Source of the DNA: a virus
Strand: one strand, 5' to 3'
Virus record (IMG/VR): IMGVR_UViG_3300021197_001653
Span: 32,001 to 96,000 of that record
DNA: 64,000 nt
A model generated the notes under the pieces. It was not told where the DNA came from. It saw only the letters and a list, made by a program, of their open reading frames with translations, and ran no database searches. The position numbers and the translations under genes are program-made. Positions 1,736 through 63,832 of the stretch are shown here, one piece after another; position 1 is the stretch's first letter; every line of letters begins with the position of its first letter.

Positions 1736-2849
1736 TTTTATAATAAATATTGATCATAATGATATTAATTATACTAATAAATTGTCGTATAATTTATATG
1801 AGAGATGCGTTAATGAAATTAATATAAGTGAGGGTATTCAAATATTAAATTTAAATGATATAACATTATCTCTTTTGTCAACTTATAATGGTGATGCTAG
1901 AAAAAATTTAGTAATTACTTCAATAGTAACAAATCTTATAAATGTAACATATTTAACTAATGTTATAACCAATATTGATTTACCTATATCAATTAATATT
2001 ACAGGTTTAAATGATACTACATTAATTCCTGATTTATTATTAGAAGGTGATATTACTATAGAAAATAATCCTGAAGATAATTTAATAAGTAGTGTTAATA
2101 TAACTTATTATATTGAAGATGAAAATGATCAAAAAGGAGATACTATAACTAGTTCTTTCCAATTTATAACCCAACCATGTAGTTCATTATCATCTATAAC
2201 AAGTTCTTTACCTATTATATCTAACGGAAGTGGTGTTGTTAATTATCAATTAACAGCAGATAATCAAGTATTATATTATAATATTAGTGGCTTACCAAAT
2301 GGTATAACTTATAATATAAATACTGGTTTAATAACAGGTACATCAACATTAATAGGTGTTCATAATATTATAATTTCAGTTTATAATGAAAAAGGTGTTA
2401 ATGAAGTAAATACAACTATTGAAATAATAAACCCTATAATTGTACCACCTGTGATTACAAGCCCTTTACTTTTAACAGTAGAAGAAGATTTTATAGTAAC
2501 ATATAAAATTGAAGCTACTAATAATCCAACTTCATTTCAATACATATTACCCCCTGAATTAGATTTTTTACTTAGGGTTGATCCTATTGATCCTAGTGTA
2601 TTGAAAGGTAAAGTTAGGAGTAGAGATACCGGTATTTATAATATAACTATAACTGCAACTAATGATGGTGGTATAGATATTGAAACATTAATCTTAGATG
2701 TAAGTATACCTACAGATGATTATCTAGATGGTTTTGAATTTGAAGAAAATGGCGGTGGTAGTAATGGTACAGATGGTAATACTTGGGATAATGATGATAG
2801 TAATAATAAAGATTATTGGGATTTAAGAAGGGAAAATGATGTATTTTAA
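1728..2849 (+). CDS. Putative Ig-domain (He_PIG-like) structural protein with acidic C-terminal tail
   Basis: Two repeats of the type GLPNGITYNINTGLITGT and PVITSP..Y.I.ATN.PTSF..G.YNITITATNDGG. Confidence 0.7.
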   Translation: MANFIINIDHNDINYTNKLSYNLYERCVNEINISEGIQILNLNDITLSLLSTYNGDARKNLVITSIVTNLINVTYLTNVITNIDLPISINITGLNDTTLIPDLLLEGDITIENNPEDNLISSVNITYYIEDENDQKGDTITSSFQFITQPCSSLSSITSSLPIISNGSGVVNYQLTADNQVLYYNISGLPNGITYNINTGLITGTSTLIGVHNIIISVYNEKGVNEVNTTIEIINPIIVPPVITSPLLLTVEEDFIVTYKIEATNNPTSFQYILPPELDFLLRVDPIDPSVLKGKVRSRDTGIYNITITATNDGGIDIETLILDVSIPTDDYLDGFEFEENGGGSNGTDGNTWDNDDSNNKDYWDLRRENDVF

Positions 2850-2860
2850 TAAATAAAATA

Positions 2861-3277
2861 ATGATAAATAAATTTAAATTTTGGAAAAAAAATAAAGCTA
2901 TTAATAAATTCAAAGAAATTAATAGTACACCTGCTATTAAAACAGATGCATTAATAACTTTTAAACAATTAGAAGATATCCCTATTAATATAGTTAATCA
3001 AATTTTACCTGATAAAAAAGGTTCTATTGAAACTACTCGATTATATAATGAAACAGAAGATTTAACTTTTAGAGTTCATATGAAAAAAGATGAAGTATGG
3101 AACTTTCATCATCATGATTGTGAAGAAATAATATTAATACATAAAGGTAAGCTTAAAGTATCAATATCTGAAAAAATTTATAATAAAGGGAATATATTTA
3201 AAATATATAAAAATATTAACCATAGTGTTAAAGCCCTTGAAGATTCAATATTTTATGTTGAATTCAAAAAACCTTAA
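2861..3277 (+). CDS. Cupin-domain protein
   Basis: HHHDCEE..LIHKGKL and H.VKALEDS cupin metal-binding motifs. Confidence 0.75.
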   Translation: MINKFKFWKKNKAINKFKEINSTPAIKTDALITFKQLEDIPINIVNQILPDKKGSIETTRLYNETEDLTFRVHMKKDEVWNFHHHDCEEIILIHKGKLKVSISEKIYNKGNIFKIYKNINHSVKALEDSIFYVEFKKP

Positions 3278-3302
3278 TAATAAACAATAAAAAATAATCA
3301 TA

Positions 3303-3668
3303 ATGAAAAATTGGTTTGTTGAAAATCTAAACTTTATAATAATTACTATTATACTACCTTTAATAGGGTGGTTTGGCTCTAAAAAATACTTTCAAGATAG
3401 AGAACTTAAAAGTAAAGATATTGAAAATGATTCTGGTATATCAGAGGTTTTACATAAAAACTTAAATTTATATCAAAGAATGTTGGATGATATTGAAGAA
3501 AGGTATGAAGATAAGTTAGCTAAAAGAGATATAGATATAGAAAATTTAGAAAACAAAGTTGAAAGTTTAGATACTGAAATAATATTGTTGGAAGAAGAAA
3601 TTAGTGATTTAGAGACTAAAATTTCTAAATTAAAAGCTAAAATAAAAAAATTAGATAATAATGTTTAA
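3303..3668 (+). CDS. Putative holin (N-terminal TM helix plus coiled coil)
   Basis: One TM segment followed by heptad repeats; directly upstream of the endolysin. Confidence 0.5.
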   Translation: MKNWFVENLNFIIITIILPLIGWFGSKKYFQDRELKSKDIENDSGISEVLHKNLNLYQRMLDDIEERYEDKLAKRDIDIENLENKVESLDTEIILLEEEISDLETKISKLKAKIKKLDNNV

Positions 3669-4077
3669 TCCGTATACTATAGATGATTTTAATATATCTA
3701 AAGAAGAATTATCTGAAGATATAAGTGATAAAATATTAGATTATCATATGATACCCGCATGGGAATTAGCTATTGATTTAAATGCTTACCCATCTATGGA
3801 TAGTAGTTATAGATCTATTCAGTGGGAGTTAGATCATGGTCGAAATGGTAATAGTCAGCATACTTTTAAAGGTAAAGGAGCTACTGATTGGACATGTGAT
3901 AAATTTAAAGATAATAAGGATGAATTACTTAAAAGATTAATTAGTGACACTGAATATACTAGATTTGCAGTTTATAATACATTCATACATTGTGATTATA
4001 AACCAACTAATAATAATAAAAGGCAACTTTTTGATTCAGATCCTAATAGTAAATGGACATTTAAAAAATTTGTATAA
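3661..4077 (+). CDS. Endolysin, peptidase M15 family (Zn-dependent)
   Basis: SSYRS, SQH..G.A.D and FIHCD motifs. Confidence 0.8.
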   Translation: MFNPYTIDDFNISKEELSEDISDKILDYHMIPAWELAIDLNAYPSMDSSYRSIQWELDHGRNGNSQHTFKGKGATDWTCDKFKDNKDELLKRLISDTEYTRFAVYNTFIHCDYKPTNNNKRQLFDSDPNSKWTFKKFV

Positions 4078-4670
4078 TGAATATAATAAAAAATAATTGG
4101 AAAAACTTATTAATAAGTGCTGGAATCGTTTTTGGGATGTTATATTTTTTAAATCCTAAAATAGAAGAAGTTGAAGTTCCTGTTAGGATAGAGGTGAAAG
4201 TTCCTGTAATAGAGAAAGTACATGATACTATAGAAAAACCTGTGCCTTATAAGGTATTAGTAGACTCTCCTGTTAACGAGCAATTGAGAGATAGCCTTAG
4301 TGAAGCTAAATCGGTTATAGACTCTCTAAGGGCTTATAAAGCATTTACTGTTAAAAGACAATACACACAATCATTTGATGATGAAACCCAAACAATAACT
4401 GTATTTGCTGAGACTACTGGTACATTAGATAAGTTACAGGCTAGTTATAAGACTAAACCTAAGACTATATTACTTGATACAGTATTAACAATAAAAGTTC
4501 CTAAATATAATAAGTTCTTTGGTGGTATTAGTGTAGGTGTCCCTGTTAATAATAATATAAAACCTATATTTAAGGCTGATTTATACTTAAAAACTAAAAA
4601 TAATAATCTTTGGAACATATCTTTTGATACACAAAGGATAGTGTGGATAGGGCATGCGTGGGAATTTTAA
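4077..4670 (+). CDS. Membrane-anchored lysis-cassette protein (spanin-like)
   Basis: N-terminal TM, a coiled segment, and C-terminal beta strands ending in an aromatic residue (WEF); follows the endolysin. Confidence 0.45.
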   Translation: MNIIKNNWKNLLISAGIVFGMLYFLNPKIEEVEVPVRIEVKVPVIEKVHDTIEKPVPYKVLVDSPVNEQLRDSLSEAKSVIDSLRAYKAFTVKRQYTQSFDDETQTITVFAETTGTLDKLQASYKTKPKTILLDTVLTIKVPKYNKFFGGISVGVPVNNNIKPIFKADLYLKTKNNNLWNISFDTQRIVWIGHAWEF

Positions 4671-4709
4671 TATAAATAATAAAATAAATTAGAAAAAAGT
4701 ACTAAAATA

Positions 4710-4741
4710 TTAGGATATTAAAGAAATATTTCGTACCTTTG
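4710..4741 (+). promoter_or_regulatory. Bacteroidota sigma70-type promoter (-33 TTAG / -7 TACCTTTG)
   Basis: TAnnTTTG at 4734-4741, 20 nt after a near-consensus -33 box, upstream of the 4773 ORF. Confidence 0.6.
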
Positions 4742-4772
4742 TATTAAATAACTTAATTAAAATAAAATAAAT

Positions 4773-5723
4773 ATGGGAGAAACTACAATAAGTAGAGAAG
4801 AAATAATAGAATTTTTACTGAATAAAAAAGGATATTTAAAAGAGGGGGCTAAGAGATTAAGAAACCATTTATATAATAAAGGATTTATAACAAGTGTAAA
4901 AACATGTAAATTAGCATTAAAAGAAGCTAGAACAAGAGAAAAAGAAAAAAATATTAAATTAAATAGTAAGAGCGCTAGAGTTCTTATATATGATATAGAA
5001 ACTAGTCCTAACTTAGGTTGGTTTTGGAGATCAGGATATAAATTAAACATTACACCTAATCAAATAACTAAAGAAAGAGCTATTATATGTGTATCATATA
5101 AATGGTTAGATGAAGATCAAGTATATAATCTGGCTTGGGATAAAAATCAATGTGATAAATTTTTAATAGAACAATTCACAGAGGTTTTAAATGAAGCTGA
5201 TTTAATAGTTGCTCATAATGGTGATAGATTTGATATTAAATGGTTAAAAACTAGAGCTTTATTTCATAGAATACCAATGTTACCTAATTATAAACAGTTT
5301 GATACATTAAAAGTAGCTAAGAGTAAATTACTACTTAATTCTAATAGATTGGACTATATAGCTAAATTTTTAGGTCATGAAGGTAAGAATAATACATCTA
5401 TTAATTTATGGTTAGATATTATGTTTAAAAAGTGTAAGACAGCAATGAATACAATGTTAGAATATTGCGATGAAGATGTTAGACAACTAGAAAATATATA
5501 TAATGAATTAAAATATTTAGATAACCCTAAATTACATTCAGGAGTTATTCAAGGTAAAGTAAAACAAACTTCACCTATTGATGGAGGAGTTAATATTAAA
5601 ATGATTAAATCTGTTACCACTAATAGAGGAACAATTAAATACATAATGCAAGATTTAGATAATAAGAGATTTTTTGAAATGTCTGAATCAAATTATAAAA
5701 AATACATTGAGATTAATAAATAA
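4773..5723 (+). CDS. RNase H-fold 3'-5' exonuclease-like protein (YprB/RNase_H_2-like)
   Basis: YDIET, AHNGDRFD and YCDEDV (Exo I/II/III-type) motifs. Confidence 0.8.
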   Translation: MGETTISREEIIEFLLNKKGYLKEGAKRLRNHLYNKGFITSVKTCKLALKEARTREKEKNIKLNSKSARVLIYDIETSPNLGWFWRSGYKLNITPNQITKERAIICVSYKWLDEDQVYNLAWDKNQCDKFLIEQFTEVLNEADLIVAHNGDRFDIKWLKTRALFHRIPMLPNYKQFDTLKVAKSKLLLNSNRLDYIAKFLGHEGKNNTSINLWLDIMFKKCKTAMNTMLEYCDEDVRQLENIYNELKYLDNPKLHSGVIQGKVKQTSPIDGGVNIKMIKSVTTNRGTIKYIMQDLDNKRFFEMSESNYKKYIEINK

Positions 5724-5733
5724 TATATAAACT

Positions 5734-5772
5734 AAGCCCTAAGAGCGTTTTAAAAATGTTCTAAGGGCTTTT
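5734..5772 (+). terminator. Rho-independent terminator
   Basis: AAGCCCTAAGAGCGTTT / AAATGTTCTAAGGGCTT stem followed by a T-rich tract, just after the exonuclease stop. Confidence 0.65.
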
Positions 5773-5784
5773 ATTTTTAAAAAT

Positions 5785-6465
5785 ATGGCAAAGGTTAATG
5801 AAATAATATATGACGTTAGAGAAGCTTTAAAACAGTTTTCTGATGATAGTGAGATATCTGATAGATATATTTTATATTTATATAATAATAAAAGATCTAA
5901 ATATCTACGTCAAGATTTAAATAATTACTTAAAGACTGCTGATAATTCTATACAACAATCATTTTGTATTAGTATAGAAGAAGTATCTGTAAATGAATGT
6001 AGTATATCTTTTGATTGTGAGACAATTATGAGGACTACAACAAAGATACCAACACCTTTAGAGTTACATAGTAAGACAGCAATTACAAAAGTTAAACCAT
6101 CTATTAAGATAGCATTACCTTTTAACTTCATAAGTAAAGAGAAGGCTTATTATTTAGAAGGTTCAAAATTCCCTAATTCAATATATAGTTTTTTAGATGT
6201 TGATGGTTATATATACTTATATAGTAAATCACCAGTAGCTAAATTAATGGAATGTATTAATATAACAGGTATATTTGAAAATCCTTCATCATTATCTGAT
6301 TTTAGAGAGGGTTGTAGTGATACTAGCCCCTCTTGTTTTAATGAAGCTATTTCAGAATATCCTTTACAACCACATTATATTGACTTAATTAGAAAAGAGA
6401 TTGTTCAAGATCTTATGAATGAGAGTCAAAATAAAGAAGATAAAACTAATAACTCAACTGATTAA
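5785..6465 (+). CDS. crAss-like ring / tail tubular protein
   Basis: SDDS motif, GIFENP..YP pattern, and position before the IHF-like gene, tail tube and muzzle as in Crassvirales. Confidence 0.65.
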   Translation: MAKVNEIIYDVREALKQFSDDSEISDRYILYLYNNKRSKYLRQDLNNYLKTADNSIQQSFCISIEEVSVNECSISFDCETIMRTTTKIPTPLELHSKTAITKVKPSIKIALPFNFISKEKAYYLEGSKFPNSIYSFLDVDGYIYLYSKSPVAKLMECINITGIFENPSSLSDFREGCSDTSPSCFNEAISEYPLQPHYIDLIRKEIVQDLMNESQNKEDKTNNSTD

Positions 6466-31641: not shown

Positions 31642-32547
31642 TTACAATTCTCCCTGTGTGCGATTTTTTTCTTTTCTAACATGTGTTTTATACAATGTAT
31701 AAAAATTTCCTGTATAATATTGTTTAATATTTTTATAATTCTCAATCATGAATTTACAGAATAATGGATGTTTATTATAGTTACTAACTAAATTCATAAA
31801 CGCATTCATAAAGAACATTTTTACTTTATATTTATCAAGTTTTATATGGTCTGGATGACCTATAATATATTTTGTTAATGTATCTATATATAATCTATCT
31901 GTAACAGCTCTTAACTTATCTACAAAATCTAGTTGTAAAAAATTATCATCAATTATATTATAAAAAGTTATCTCCCATACATAATTATATTCTGAGTTAT
32001 CACCACTTTTAATAATATTCATTAATTGATAATGACTTTTAATATATCCCCAATTTGGTACAGGGCTTTTATATTTTATGTCACCAAGTTCTAATTTCCA
32101 TTTAACTAAATTTTTAGATACTATAGCTAAATCTTCTTCAATACCATCTTTTCTATCAATAAGTTCATTTGTACAATGTTTTCTTAATATATTGTAACCT
32201 TTTACATCATGACACCATTTAACCATGTTAATATGGTTATAAACAATTGGTATTCTTTGTATTGCAAATTGTAATCTTGATGGTATATGTTTAAACGTTT
32301 TATTATTACTTGCAGTATATAATAATAAATCATGTAATGTGTCTTGTGCTGAAGCATTGTGAATTACTACCTCTTTAGTTCCTTTATAAAATCTAGATGA
32401 TATATCACTTAATGGTTTCCCATAACCACGTAAGCCTAAATATGTTTTAATATAAGGTATATCACTGTGATTAGCTATTATTTCTAGCCTTTTTACAGGA
32501 AAATTAGGATCAATATTATTTATTACTGCGTCTCCTATTATTAACAT
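31642..32547 (-). CDS. Hypothetical protein
   Basis: 301-aa ORF in the operon; no recognised motif. Confidence 0.6.
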   Translation of the reverse strand: MLIIGDAVINNIDPNFPVKRLEIIANHSDIPYIKTYLGLRGYGKPLSDISSRFYKGTKEVVIHNASAQDTLHDLLLYTASNNKTFKHIPSRLQFAIQRIPIVYNHINMVKWCHDVKGYNILRKHCTNELIDRKDGIEEDLAIVSKNLVKWKLELGDIKYKSPVPNWGYIKSHYQLMNIIKSGDNSEYNYVWEITFYNIIDDNFLQLDFVDKLRAVTDRLYIDTLTKYIIGHPDHIKLDKYKVKMFFMNAFMNLVSNYNKHPLFCKFMIENYKNIKQYYTGNFYTLYKTHVRKEKNRTQGEL

Positions 32548-60087: not shown

Positions 60088-60094
60088 CAATTTG

Positions 60095-60487
60095 TTACTT
60101 ATTAAATATAGAATTGTATAGATTTTCTAAATACTCTGGTGTATATTTACCATAATTTGAAAATCTAAAGGTGTTTTTATACCTATTAGTTACTCGTTCT
60201 TCAGATACACACCAAAATTTATGTTTATGAGTATATTTGAAAAACACTATATTTTTAATATCAGGGCATCTATATGCTCTAAATTGTTGTGATACTAAGC
60301 ATTCCATTAATAATGCTTCACTCACACCTTTAAATCTATATAATTTAAATAAATCTCCAAAAGTTCTTCTTGCATATATTTTATCATCATTTTTAAAAAG
60401 TTTAAATTTAAAATAATCTAAAACTACATTTCTAGGTCTACTTGGGCATTTATTATTTAAGTCCTTTATTAATTCTTCTTTATTCAT
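60095..60487 (-). CDS. Intron-borne hypothetical protein in loop L9.2
   Basis: Closed by a 13-bp inverted repeat, 60492-60504 / 60101-60113; its last codons form the 3' strand. Confidence 0.65.
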   Translation of the reverse strand: MNKEELIKDLNNKCPSRPRNVVLDYFKFKLFKNDDKIYARRTFGDLFKLYRFKGVSEALLMECLVSQQFRAYRCPDIKNIVFFKYTHKHKFWCVSEERVTNRYKNTFRFSNYGKYTPEYLENLYNSIFNK

Positions 60488-60561
60488 TTTTTTCTATATT
60501 TAATTGGTTCAGTCATTTCTGCTGAACTCTATAATTTATAATAAAAAAATATAAAAATTAA

Positions 60562-61203
60562 TTAATCAACACAATTTAATAACCATGTTTTAATAGTATT
60601 ACCACTGTTGCTATTTATAGCTGTTTCATGAGAGTCTGTTAACTCTTCTAACCCAGTATCAACAATACTAAAACGATTATGATTTGTATTTGTAGATAAC
60701 ACTGCCATACAACTAGTGTTCTCTTTAATTAATTCAAAACAAGTTTTAGATATATGTGTTGTTAATTCACGTCTTTCCTCTGCATTTATAGTATTAAACC
60801 TTTGACCAAAGTTATAAATAGATGTAGAAAAAGCATTTAAATTATATATTTGATTTACACCACAACTAATCTCTGAACCACTTAAAGATAAACTGGGGCT
60901 AGCATTATAATTTCTTCTACCAACATTATATGTGATATCAAAATCATATGCACGACCTACATCCATATTAATAACAAGCGCTTCTTTAATAGAATCTAAT
61001 GTTGGATTAACAACAGGTTCTTCTACTACTTCCTCAACAATTGCTTGTCTAATTTCTTCAAATAATTTCTTTGAATAAGAAGCTATTTTATTCTTATCAT
61101 TTTCTATATTATACATATCTCTTGTACTCCCTAATATAATATAAGGATTACCTTTTGTTAATGCATAATTTTTAGCATTAATACAAGTTACTTGTTTTGC
61201 CAT
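60562..61203 (-). CDS. Intron-borne hypothetical protein in loop L9
   Basis: Enclosed by CTATAA (61243-61238) / TTATAG (60534-60529). Confidence 0.7.
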   Translation of the reverse strand: MAKQVTCINAKNYALTKGNPYIILGSTRDMYNIENDKNKIASYSKKLFEEIRQAIVEEVVEEPVVNPTLDSIKEALVINMDVGRAYDFDITYNVGRRNYNASPSLSLSGSEISCGVNQIYNLNAFSTSIYNFGQRFNTINAEERRELTTHISKTCFELIKENTSCMAVLSTNTNHNRFSIVDTGLEELTDSHETAINSNSGNTIKTWLLNCVD

Positions 61204-61262
61204 TTTAATTAATTTTTTAAATTTTTATTGTTTATATTTATAGTTCGGACTGTCTCATCAAC

Positions 61263-61520
61263 CTAACTACACATACATGTATTGTCTCCTCCACATTTAC
61301 ATTCATTAGGTTGCTCATTGTCAGTCTCTACACCGTTTTGTAATTTTTTTAATATTAAATATTTAATATCCTTAAAAGGAGTATCTTTTTCAATATCCTT
61401 TTTTACTAGAGATATTAAATAACCAATATCTTTATTATCAATTGACGGCACGGGATTGTCTTTAATTTTGTCATTTTTTATGACACTTTTAACTTGCTCA
61501 CTATTTTTATCGCTAGTCAT
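61263..61520 (-). CDS. Possible 85-aa protein overlapping the ribozyme core
   Basis: ATG overlaps the upstream TGA; frame is open through Q, P6, R and P8. Confidence 0.45.
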   Translation of the reverse strand: MTSDKNSEQVKSVIKNDKIKDNPVPSIDNKDIGYLISLVKKDIEKDTPFKDIKYLILKKLQNGVETDNEQPNECKCGGDNTCMCS

Positions 61521-62155
61521 TTTATTCTAGGTATTAATAAATTTCTTTGTAATTCTGCATATTTTTCAGATTTACTTACCATTAATTTAATAGTACTTAT
61601 CGTTAACTTATTTTTAGAAACAGGTTTAAATAAATTATTTATATAACCATTTGTATTCAATTTGTCAATAAATTGATTCCAGCTTCTATATGTATAAAAA
61701 TGATTTAGTCTATTATTTACAGGTACAACATCCATACTATTACGAATACTTGAACCACCACTTGAATAATGGGCTAATAAAATAGCATTATATGGTTTCA
61801 CACCATTATCTATCAAATCAACCATTTTAACTAATATTTTCTTTAATGTTCTAGTTCTAACATACCTACATAATTTAAAAAAGATTCTTTGATTTTTATT
61901 TTTAAATTTAATTTTACTTTCAAATATAAAACTTTCTTCTTTAATATTATGCAATTGCATTATTTTATCAAATTTCTTAAATAAAGTAATTAATAAAGTA
62001 CATTCTTCTTTACTACCTGTAAATTTATGAATATGGTGATTTTGATAACCATCACTACAATTCATATACATATGTATACTATATACATTACCACTACGCC
62101 ATTTATTATTACACGATGATGGTATTCTAGTCATTTTTGTTAAACTTGTTGCCAT
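61517..62155 (-). CDS. Intron-borne hypothetical protein in loop L5
   Basis: Lies between the P5 strands at 62173-62167 and 61465-61459. Confidence 0.7.
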   Translation of the reverse strand: MATSLTKMTRIPSSCNNKWRSGNVYSIHMYMNCSDGYQNHHIHKFTGSKEECTLLITLFKKFDKIMQLHNIKEESFIFESKIKFKNKNQRIFFKLCRYVRTRTLKKILVKMVDLIDNGVKPYNAILLAHYSSGGSSIRNSMDVVPVNNRLNHFYTYRSWNQFIDKLNTNGYINNLFKPVSKNKLTISTIKLMVSKSEKYAELQRNLLIPRIK

Positions 62156-62193
62156 TTTTTATTTTTTTAAAGAGTTTCCCCGTTAGCTAATAT

Positions 62194-62676
62194 TTATAAA
62201 TTTAATTGATCATTTCGTATATCAATTAATTGATTATACGAAATACCATCCACTCCTACTTTCTCACCAAAGTATTTTTTACTATAATTGGTGATGAAAT
62301 TTTTTCTACAAGGATTATCCTTACTAAACCCACCTACAACAACAAACTTATTTACTTGGGTACACCATACTAAATAGCATCTATTATCATGATTTAATTC
62401 TGCTACTATTCTGATTACTGCGTCAATAGTTGTTATTGGAAACCTACTTCTAACGATAGAAGTTAATTCAGATATAGACCTACTTGATGATCTATTACAT
62501 TGAATATTACCATTCTTGTGATATGTGTTTGGTCTTTTTTCTAAAAATTGTCTTAAGAAACTTTTTCTTGTCTTTGTTAATGGAATATCTGTTTCATTAA
62601 CATAAATTATTTTCGTGATAGTTTTCATTCTTATTATTAATATTAACCTCCAAAAATATCTAATAACTTTTTTCAT
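62194..62676 (-). CDS. Intron-borne hypothetical protein inserted just 5' of P4
   Basis: Stop codon lies about 10 nt before the P4 5' strand; probable paralogue of 50209. Confidence 0.7.
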   Translation of the reverse strand: MKKVIRYFWRLILIIRMKTITKIIYVNETDIPLTKTRKSFLRQFLEKRPNTYHKNGNIQCNRSSSRSISELTSIVRSRFPITTIDAVIRIVAELNHDNRCYLVWCTQVNKFVVVGGFSKDNPCRKNFITNYSKKYFGEKVGVDGISYNQLIDIRNDQLNL

Positions 62677-62705
62677 GTTATTTATTTAAAAGTTAGATTG
62701 TTTAT

Positions 62706-63611
62706 TTATTTTTTTATTGATGCATATGCTTCTGGCATCACACTTCTTTCTGCAAAATTTATAAATGGTTCTACTGCTTCCGATTTTGTTTTAGATAAAT
62801 CAGCTATAGCTTCTTCCATTAATCTTCCTTTTTTTTCTTCTTTGGAATTCTGAGTTTTAAGATTATTTTCTTTTGATACTTCTTTTTCTATTTTTTTTTC
62901 ATTTAATACATGTTCTCCAGGATTAAAATGATATACATTTATTGTATTTTTGGAATTATTATTAACATACGAGTATTGCAATTGAAATCCTAATCTTTCA
63001 ACAAAATCTTTTGCGGTACTTTGGTTATCTGTAATATGTGCAATTTTTGCAGCTCTATCAACATTTAAATGATCAAAGATAATTTTATAATCACTTATTA
63101 TTAAATTTTTATATCTACAATATACACCACTACTATTCTCAAAGTTAAATAATATTTGACAACCACAACAATCTGAATGTGGTGTTTGTTTAAATAAACT
63201 TATACCCGGTCCATTATTTTTAAATATTGATAGTTTACCATTAGAATCTTTTATACGAACAAATGAGGTATCACTAATACTTATTTGACTACTTCGTGAA
63301 TTTGAATTTGTTACTTTTAAATGTCTTTGATACCACGGTTCATTTAATACCATATCATTTTCATTTATTATTCTATTTATTATAACGCCATCAGATAGTT
63401 TTAAACCTTCTCGTATATGAAATGCCCATGAATATGTATATAATTCAGTTATAGGATGTTTAGAATTAGCAGGCCGACTACCTTTTTTATTATTTTGAAA
63501 AAAATAATATAGATTATTTAATTTAATTACATGACCTATTGTATATGTGCCATTAATACTTCCTTCTACATGTATCTGATCATTATCTGATAATTTTTCT
63601 AGTTCTTTCAT
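62706..63611 (-). CDS. Intron-borne hypothetical protein downstream of P2 (probable P2.1 loop)
   Basis: Flanked by AGAUU (63623-63619) / AAUCU (62699-62695); shares motifs with 60562. Confidence 0.7.
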   Translation of the reverse strand: MKELEKLSDNDQIHVEGSINGTYTIGHVIKLNNLYYFFQNNKKGSRPANSKHPITELYTYSWAFHIREGLKLSDGVIINRIINENDMVLNEPWYQRHLKVTNSNSRSSQISISDTSFVRIKDSNGKLSIFKNNGPGISLFKQTPHSDCCGCQILFNFENSSGVYCRYKNLIISDYKIIFDHLNVDRAAKIAHITDNQSTAKDFVERLGFQLQYSYVNNNSKNTINVYHFNPGEHVLNEKKIEKEVSKENNLKTQNSKEEKKGRLMEEAIADLSKTKSEAVEPFINFAERSVMPEAYASIKK

Positions 63612-63661
63612 TTTTTATAATCTTTTTTCCATATATATTACTATATACAGGGGCAAAATCT

Positions 63662-63832
63662 ACCCACTTTACTATTCGCTGTTATAAGATAATATTTACC
63701 TTTTTCTATACCAGGTAATTCATTTTCAAATCTTGGTAAACCCCATGGTATACAATTTACCTTTCCAGATAGAATTCTATTTTTTCTATCTACTAAATTT
63801 TCATAAACTCTACTATATAATGTCTTTTTCAT
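63662..63832 (-). CDS. dnaB: DnaB-like helicase, exon 1 (MKKTLY...IPWGLPRFE..LPGIEKGKYYLITANSKVG)
   Basis: Typical DnaB pre-Walker-A segment ending at VG; joined with exon 2 it gives a 372-aa protein. Confidence 0.9.

Follow-up and report, generated by a model that had tools for sequence, protein, structure and literature searches.

An open reading frame (ORF) of 85 codons in the genome of a marine crAss-like phage is likely to be a real, translated small gene that doubles as the 3' half of a group I catalytic core, extending from P5' to P8'. The ORF (258 nt) lies at 61263-61520 on the minus strand of the window, the 64,000-nt stretch of DNA analyzed here (positions 32,001 to 96,000 of IMG/VR record IMGVR_UViG_3300021197_001653). 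The source record is a complete virus genome of 104,434 bp with a GC content of 27.3%, and all genes around the 85-aa ORF are carried by the minus strand. Comparison with relatives indicates that one and the same RNA stretch holds half of a ribozyme and an open frame, both conserved. Core helices, together with the loops that they close, make up about 200 of the 258 nt of the ORF: the frame runs through P5', P4' (the Q element), P6, L6, P6', the 5' strand of P7 (the R element), P3', P8 and L8, and then into P8', where the UAG stop makes up three of the seven bases. At its other end, the ATG overlaps the TGA (61519-61517) of a 212-aa ORF in L5 (61517-62155) in the form ATGA. By base-composition arithmetic at 27.3% GC, the chance of an 85-codon open frame is ~5e-4 per given frame. 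A preliminary description of the window had proposed this ORF, its ATGA overlap with the L5 gene and its course through P5', P4', P6, P7, P3' and P8 to a TAG in P8'; extraction returned the same coordinates, and the map proved right on every point. The L6 put there at about 110 nt measures 108 nt, and the Cys cluster assigned to L8 is encoded by a 39-nt loop, as NECKCGGDNTCMC.

The relatives used for comparison were eleven helicase loci from IMG/VR, loci retrieved with the 14-mer GACAAUCCCGUGCC and loci retrieved through close protein homologues in a metagenome scan (locus numbers have three digits, as in L009; L5, L6 and L8 are loops). Most loci with DNA are orthologous introns at the same helicase site, and sequence counts are not counts of independent events. 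Core-bearing sequences are of two kinds, compact copies with a Q-to-R distance below 45 nt and 22 copies with an expanded L6. The Q-to-R distance is divisible by three in every one of the 22 expanded copies, where it ranges over 111-288 nt with at least 16 lengths. The 946 L6 codons of these relatives contain no stop in the ORF frame, as opposed to 94 and 169 stops in the other frames (5 and 6 in the L6 of the window), and the R element itself is open in one frame only, with UAG and UGA in the other two. In 17 of the 22 relatives, the ORF ends at the same P8' UAG, and the R-to-S distances of these 17, 39-222 nt, are again all multiples of three; the frame is a different one in L058, L065 and L140, where the ORF continues into J8/7, P7' or P9. 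Among the compact copies, L009 and L076 keep the core without the ORF, and L089 has an ORF of 26 codons. The RNA thus does not need the ORF, which accompanies the loop expansions. A search with a profile of the ORFs among 1.84 billion representatives yielded 276 clusters (50% identity, E up to 1e-3), 144 of which were parsed for both the Q and the R motif. Of the 144, 63 are stand-alone ORFs that start at most 8 residues ahead of the Q motif; another 63 are extended N-terminally by more than 30 residues, representing fusions with L5-encoded domains (one of them GNAT); and 74 have an L8 tail with at least four Cys. The preliminary description had named an open frame and loop indels in multiples of three as the pattern to look for among homologous introns, and this is how the relatives behave. 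By these comparisons, both the open frame and the RNA structure are kept by selection.

The ribozyme core belongs to an intron that interrupts the gene of a DnaB-like replicative helicase, whose closest matches are in Cellulophaga phage phi14:2 and other Crassvirales. In the window, the helicase is split into an 80-aa ORF (exon 1), which ends with ...ITANSKVG followed by six junk codons (RFCPCI*), and a 316-aa ORF (exon 2), in which helicase homology begins precisely at KTQIADW. The insert is preceded by U and its last base is G (60088), a terminal G found in all copies. Uninterrupted helicases, namely those of L007 (ANSKVGKTQIADW) and of crAss phage cr108_1 (L002, ANSKIGKTQIADD), read ...ANSK(V/I)GKTQIAD..., and deleting 60088-63661 therefore rebuilds the Walker A motif exactly (ANSKVG/KTQIADW). 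Both helicase exons are 70-82% identical among the intron-bearing phages. The features of the intron are given below in window coordinates; all elements lie on the minus strand, and the exon junction, P1 and the elements from P4 onwards were verified by extraction.

60088-63661, minus strand: group I intron, 3574 nt, inside the Walker A codons of the DnaB-like replicative helicase
63662, minus strand: end of exon 1, ...ANSKVG (GGU)
60087, minus strand: start of exon 2, KTQIADW (AAA)
63651-63665, minus strand: P1, formed by exon GGGU (63665-63662) and internal guide GCCC (63654-63651); the splice site has a U.G wobble
63628-63650, minus strand: P2 hairpin with a GUAA loop, kept with differing stems in L001, L006, L009 and L015
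62851-62854, minus strand: P3 5' strand CUCA, within AAACUCAGAAU, inside the coding sequence of a 301-aa cargo ORF
62183-62178, minus strand: P4 5' strand ACGGGG, shortly before the ATG of the 212-aa ORF
within 62167-62183, minus strand: J4/5 AAAC and the P5 5' strand UCUUUAA (62173-62167), shortly before the same ATG
between P5 and P5', minus strand: L5, containing the 212-aa ORF as well as 55 nt from the start of the 85-aa ORF
61517-62155, minus strand: 212-aa cargo ORF, which fills L5 and is without known family
61263-61520, minus strand: 85-aa ORF, ATG at 61520-61518, stop UAG at 61265-61263 within P8'
61465-61459, minus strand: P5' UUAAAGA
61455-61450, minus strand: P4' UCCCGU, preceded by J5/4 CAA; Q element GACAAUCCCGUGCC
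61450-61465, minus strand: P5', J5/4 and P4', encoding K-D-N-P-V-P
61448-61445 and 61336-61333, minus strand: P6, CCGU with ACGG, closing L6
61444-61337, minus strand: L6, 108 nt or 36 codons
61328-61322 and 61252-61247, minus strand: P7, GAGACUG (R) with CAGUCC (S), the 3' strand lying directly downstream of the ORF
61317-61314, minus strand: P3' UGAG
61313-61332, minus strand: J6/7, R, J7/3 and P3', encoding G-V-E-T-D-N-E
61312-61306 and 61266-61260, minus strand: P8 AACCUAA with P8' UUAGGUU
61305-61267, minus strand: L8, 39 nt, encoding the Cys cluster
61247-61259, minus strand: J8/7 GAUGAGA and the P7 3' strand, together the S element

The core helices follow the canonical order P3, P4, P5, P5', P4', P6, P6', P7, P3', P8, P8', P7'. 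Every copy shows four blocks in a constant order, namely ACGGGGAAAnUCUUU immediately ahead of the L5 ORF, then GACAAUCCCGUGCC (Q), GGUGUAGAGACU (R) and GAUGAGAYAGUCC (S), and the L6 and L8 sequences are highly diverged among the mostly orthologous loci. P4 (ACGGGG/UCCCGU) forms six of six pairs in 23 sequences and includes two independent compensatory variants, ACGAGG/UCUCGU in L006 and ACGGUG/UACCGU in L009, and P5 covaries as well (CCUUUA/UAAAGG in L137, CCAUUA/UAAUGG in L138). For P6, P7 and P8 together, 96.2% of the cells of the 22-sequence alignment are paired and 7 pairs have changed on both sides, values that were reached by 0 of 500 shuffles; slid controls were 20-42% paired. P6 is nearly invariant and so uninformative for covariation, and P7 is 100% paired, its last pair being G-C in 13 sequences and A-U in 9. 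Within P7, a G and a bulged A are followed by a G-C pair in all 22 sequences and then by an A-U pair in 21. A bulged nucleotide with an invariant G-C pair in P7 is the guanosine-binding-site pattern of group I introns. P3 is formed by the four nucleotides after J7/3 and a conserved AAA-NNNN-GAAU element, with the pair types CUCA/UGAG, UUCA/UGAA, UUCC/GGAA, CUUC/GAAG, CUCG/CGAG and CUCU/GGAG. A P3 located beside P4, or split by a 160-aa ORF, gave no consistent pairing and was rejected; the covarying partner lies inside the 301-aa ORF, and the 11-mer AAACUCAGAAU is found identically after P2 in L001, L074 and L139. P1 covaries with the exon, GGGU/GCCC in the window being replaced by the compensatory UUGGU/GCCAA in L009. 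P3, P4, P5, P7 and P8 thus covary across about 20 introns, most of them orthologous, and their partner strands lie outside the ORF, as far away as 1.4 kb. Matches to the Q-P6-R stretch also occur in 52 phage records, in intergenic or intron sequence; one of these is annotated as a group I intron, that of psbA in Synechococcus phage S-CBWM1, and shares the P4, Q, R and S blocks. The Q and P4 blocks of the window presumably also resemble those of the T4 td intron. Covariation and the exact restoration of the helicase P-loop support the earlier assignment of Q, P6, R, P3' and P8 to a group I core. On this comparative evidence, the core under the 85-aa ORF is real.

As judged from the alignments, the two invariant segments of the peptide, KDNPVPS (from P5'/P4'/P6) and NGVET(D/N)xEQP (from P6'/P7/P3'/P8), are fixed by RNA helices. 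The alternation of D and N after NGVET tracks the last pair of P7 (C or U in the S element), the partner of which lies past the ORF stop; D or G before NPVPS tracks P5, 45-700 nt upstream; and NE/KE/NG/KK tracks P3, more than 1 kb upstream. The loops suggest some constraint on the peptide. The three closest sequences share the tail CKCxGDxTxCMC, with synonymous changes in its Gly (GGA/GGC/GGU) and Thr (ACA/ACU) codons, Cys-rich tails recur in unrelated sequence contexts, and the Cys-rich L8 tail found in about half of the relatives is probably metal-binding. For L6, the ratio of non-synonymous to synonymous substitution rates (dN/dS) in the two closest pairs with DNA is 0.42 (L035/L055) and 0.26 (L058/L125), estimates that rest on only 38-44 codons per pair and point to moderate purifying selection on the peptide in these two pairs.

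The small number of codons behind these ratios is one of several points that weigh against a translated gene doubling as a ribozyme half. Outside the RNA-fixed motifs, mean column identity of the peptide is 15-19%; L6 peptides have diverged almost beyond alignment despite the 70-82% identity of the helicase exons. The AlphaFold2 model of the ORF consists of two helices only, at low confidence (predicted local distance difference test score, pLDDT, 62.8), and the ESM Atlas model is of low confidence as well (pLDDT 0.44). The apparent peptide pattern may in part come from RNA symmetry, given that L6 forms a hairpin in all 22 relatives: in the window, its minimum free energy is -24.6 kcal/mol as compared to -12.0 for shuffles (z ~-4), and it is significant in 22 of 22 relatives, with a mean z of -3.2 versus -0.85 for control coding windows of the phage. 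The L6 peptide that had been described as amphipathic-looking is present as quoted; its helix-like pattern is weak evidence for a folded protein, since L6 is also a long RNA hairpin. Finally, the Rfam model RF00028 did not detect the intron in the window, neither at the gathering threshold nor at E up to 10, and it missed the subtype at any threshold in six helicase loci and in the compact relatives. We attribute this last point to the model: RF00028 found a different intron in L009 with 96.5 bits and missed the present one in the same locus, which makes it insensitive to the subtype and to its ORF-filled loops. Together with the covariation, we take this to mean that RF00028 is blind to this subtype.

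Family searches gave few hints about the function of the peptide. The 85-aa ORF had no match in Pfam, PHROG or NCBIfam and only a weak, sub-significant one in PADLOC. Family searches revealed in it neither a homing-endonuclease catalytic domain (GIY-YIG, HNH, LAGLIDADG, His-Cys box or PD-(D/E)xK) nor a known maturase domain. In the ESM Atlas, there was no usable match by features, and structure neighbours were uninformative at a pLDDT of 0.44. A domain search of 18 relatives returned one unrelated GNAT, one small zinc ribbon and nothing else, and the five other cargo proteins of the intron had no family match or only weak sub-threshold ones. Our best guess from the sequences is that the protein may serve the intron as a small accessory that binds nucleic acid or metal.

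The divergence of the loop peptides also leads to a different proposal, in which translation itself would be the function: the passage of ribosomes from L5 to P8' would act as a timer or gate for core folding, the peptide being a disposable by-product. This would account for a frame that stays open although the L6 and L8 peptides diverge almost beyond alignment, for the fixed position of the stop in P8' in 17 of 22 relatives, and for the unrelated L5 proteins with which the ORF is freely fused or coupled; moreover, there is a precedent in the splicing of td, which is blocked by ribosome occupancy (PMC3073962). A peptide without a role of its own is, however, at odds with dN/dS values below 1 in two pairs, with the Cys-rich tails in 74 of 144 relatives and with the synonymous changes within the CKCxGDxTxCMC tail, and we consider this explanation rather unlikely.

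Overlaps between intron ORFs and core sequences are already known as 'core creep', and a neutral version of it would have the L5 ORF extended through the core to the next available stop, without selection on the extension. Such overlaps, listed at 9-81 nt, all concern homing endonucleases (PMC3073962; also PMC3984707, PMC11878797). In the T4 td intron, the I-TevI ORF overlaps the core helices P6a/P7 (reviewed in PMC3073962), and in the Synechococcus lividus LSU rDNA intron, a LAGLIDADG ORF reaches across P6/P7/P3/P8/P9.0/P9 over 81 nt (Table 1 in PMC3073962). The L5 endonuclease ORF of the S-CBWM1 psbA intron (L141, NC_048106, 850-1633), which shares the P4, Q, R and S elements of the window, opens directly behind the P5 5' strand, passes through P5', Q and P6 and terminates at the UAG within R. 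Many relatives of the 85-aa ORF are in-frame fusions with L5 domains. Unselected extension is nevertheless very improbable for the ORF studied here: at 27% GC, stops should arise quickly, yet there are none in 946 codons and length changes occur only in frame, and 63 of the 144 relatives are stand-alone ORFs starting at most 8 codons before Q. The idea of an ordinary phage gene without any ribozyme, with DNPVPS and NGVETDNEQP as protein motifs and a helicase that is simply split or dead, fits the absence of an Rfam hit for a group I intron and the resemblance of the region to a row of ordinary small genes, but is extremely improbable, as these 'protein motifs' covary with nucleotides outside the ORF (S element, P5, P3), ORF-less compact copies retain the same nucleotides, and the helicase exons, both conserved at 70-82% identity, meet at an exact junction.

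Compared to these known systems, the selected, core-threaded ORF differs in extent and product. Like I-TevI in td, it is an intron ORF overlapping core helices. In td, the gene of a GIY-YIG endonuclease of 245 aa overlaps the core by ~20 nt at its 3' end, whereas in the window ~200 of 258 nt are involved, the product is without endonuclease motif and an upstream cargo gene is coupled to the ORF. Like the S. lividus ORF, it extends over several core elements; core creep of that type represents the ends of large endonuclease genes in single cases, whereas the present family comprises at least 276 clusters, its coding loop expansions stay in frame and its stop is fixed in P8'. The S-CBWM1 endonuclease ORF uses another frame than the window ORF, and the L6 of that intron is short and non-coding. 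Ribosomes also read core helices in mitochondrial group I introns, where ORFs (maturases/LAGLIDADG) are fused in frame to the upstream exon. These mitochondrial ORFs carry endonuclease or maturase domains and are joined to an exon, whereas the ORF family described here is free-standing or fused to L5 cargo, in phage. Although overlap of ORF and core is thus not new, an overlap of this extent in a conserved ORF family without endonuclease motif appears to be undescribed, and no description of such a core-threaded, non-endonuclease family was found in the searchable literature. What sets this case apart is that the overlap reaches from P5' to P8', that the loop expansions are both coding sequence and RNA hairpins, that the stop is fixed in P8' and that the products form a large, conserved non-endonuclease family.

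If the 85-aa ORF is indeed translated, the two uses of the RNA should interfere. The core helices would dictate the linker segments of the protein, and the L6 and L8 expansions would hold its variable parts. A ribosome moving along the frame would have to melt P5, P4, P6, P7, P3 and P8, which should render translation and catalysis mutually exclusive on one RNA molecule. In td, ORF translation competes with ribozyme folding and has to be restrained to allow splicing (PMC3073962, citing Gibb & Edgell 2010), and ribosome occupancy of core sequences leads to a splicing defect (PMC3073962). The peptide would therefore be made before the core folds, or from the excised intron; that the protein can come only from unspliced or excised RNA, as previously noted, is true by construction. 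In minimal relatives, the start codon lies in the L5 loop a few codons before P5'. In L138, the AUG is in a 21-nt L5 loop and codons 4-5 are already in P5', suggesting that a folded core should hinder initiation too. In the window, the plain ATGA overlap makes coupling or re-initiation a simpler reading than a programmed frameshift joining the L5 ORF and the 85-aa ORF. The frameshift was considered because of the U8 run that L005 and L010 show at the overlap and the in-frame fusion seen in L028. Strong translation, coupled to the L5 gene by the ATGA, would delay maturation of the helicase mRNA; such a delay may be used as a gate or merely tolerated. The preliminary description had suggested that ribosomes crossing the core could gate splicing and with it the supply of helicase, a proposal for which td would be the precedent. 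It is possible, if unlikely, that the ORF family represents a built-in switch, composed of L6- and L8-encoded domains and core-dictated linkers, in which ribosome traffic or binding of the peptide to its own hairpins times splicing. In that case, phage DNA replication would be tied to the translation of intron cargo.

The remaining cargo of the intron is variable. Compared to the window, the orthologous introns of L001, L005, L006, L009, L010, L015 and L137-L139 differ in the content and position of their cargo, which is found between P2 and P3, in the stem before P4, and in L5, P9 and P9.2. Relatives of the 301-, 160-, 212-, 213- and 130-aa ORFs come and go, none of them with a known family or endonuclease motif. 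The 301-aa ORF (62706-63611, minus strand) carries the P3 5' strand ~145 nt before its stop and is thus a second gene overlapping the core. Read by eye only, a candidate P9 pairs UUAUAG after the 213-aa ORF with CUAUAA (~61243-61238), a small hairpin GUUCAG...CUGAAC follows the 213-aa ORF (regions 60488-60561 and 60095-60107, minus strand), and a 13-bp stem, AUUAAAUAUAGAA/UUCUAUAUUUAAU, flanks the 130-aa ORF, so that every cargo gene would sit in a stem-closed loop.

Other interpretations were rejected. An intein or split intein does not fit, as the exon 1 frame stops six codons into the insert, the frame before exon 2 is closed and the first residue of exon 2 is K rather than C/S/T. Nor does stop-codon reassignment, as every large gene is open under table 11 and the record contains one tRNA-Met and zero suppressor tRNA. 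In some relatives, the helicase P-loop contains a second group I intron, inserted after ...ANS and only 9 nt further upstream (L006, 4227-5433; L009, 4904-5952; L010, 5262-5792), which leaves a micro-exon of 9 nt (AAAGUGGGU, AAAGUUGGU or AAAAUUGGU) encoding K-V/I-G. The second intron of L009, the one scored at 96.5 bits by RF00028, encodes a GIY-YIG protein. In L035 (10106-12157), an extra break of ~1.1 kb in helicase exon 2, between residues 105 and 106, suggests a further intron, and in L134, the core-threaded ORF is matched at two separate places within a single locus (1241-1405 and 2826-2993), possibly reflecting two nearby introns of the subtype. In Cellulophaga phage phi14:2 (L001, NC_021806), the region 2217-5942 contains exon 1 as g024 and the intron cargo as g025-g028, with g027 being the homologue of the 85-aa ORF in the orthologous intron. 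The RefSeq helicase of this phage is g029 only (843 nt, truncated), with no join given, unlike for polB of the same record.

Surveys of crAss-like phages recognised introns by endonuclease domains (PMC7886860). Surveys that rely on such domains or on RF00028 would miss the whole intron subtype described here. The 85-aa ORF offers an unusually clean natural case of one sequence with two codes, in which single amino-acid alternations (D/N, D/G, NE/KE) are set by base pairs up to 1.4 kb outside the gene, and its relatives provide a large comparative data set on the mutual constraint of RNA structure and protein coding. With its orthologous intron and ORF, the cultured Cellulophaga phage phi14:2 would be a tractable system for studying whether splicing of an essential replication gene is controlled by translation within a ribozyme core.
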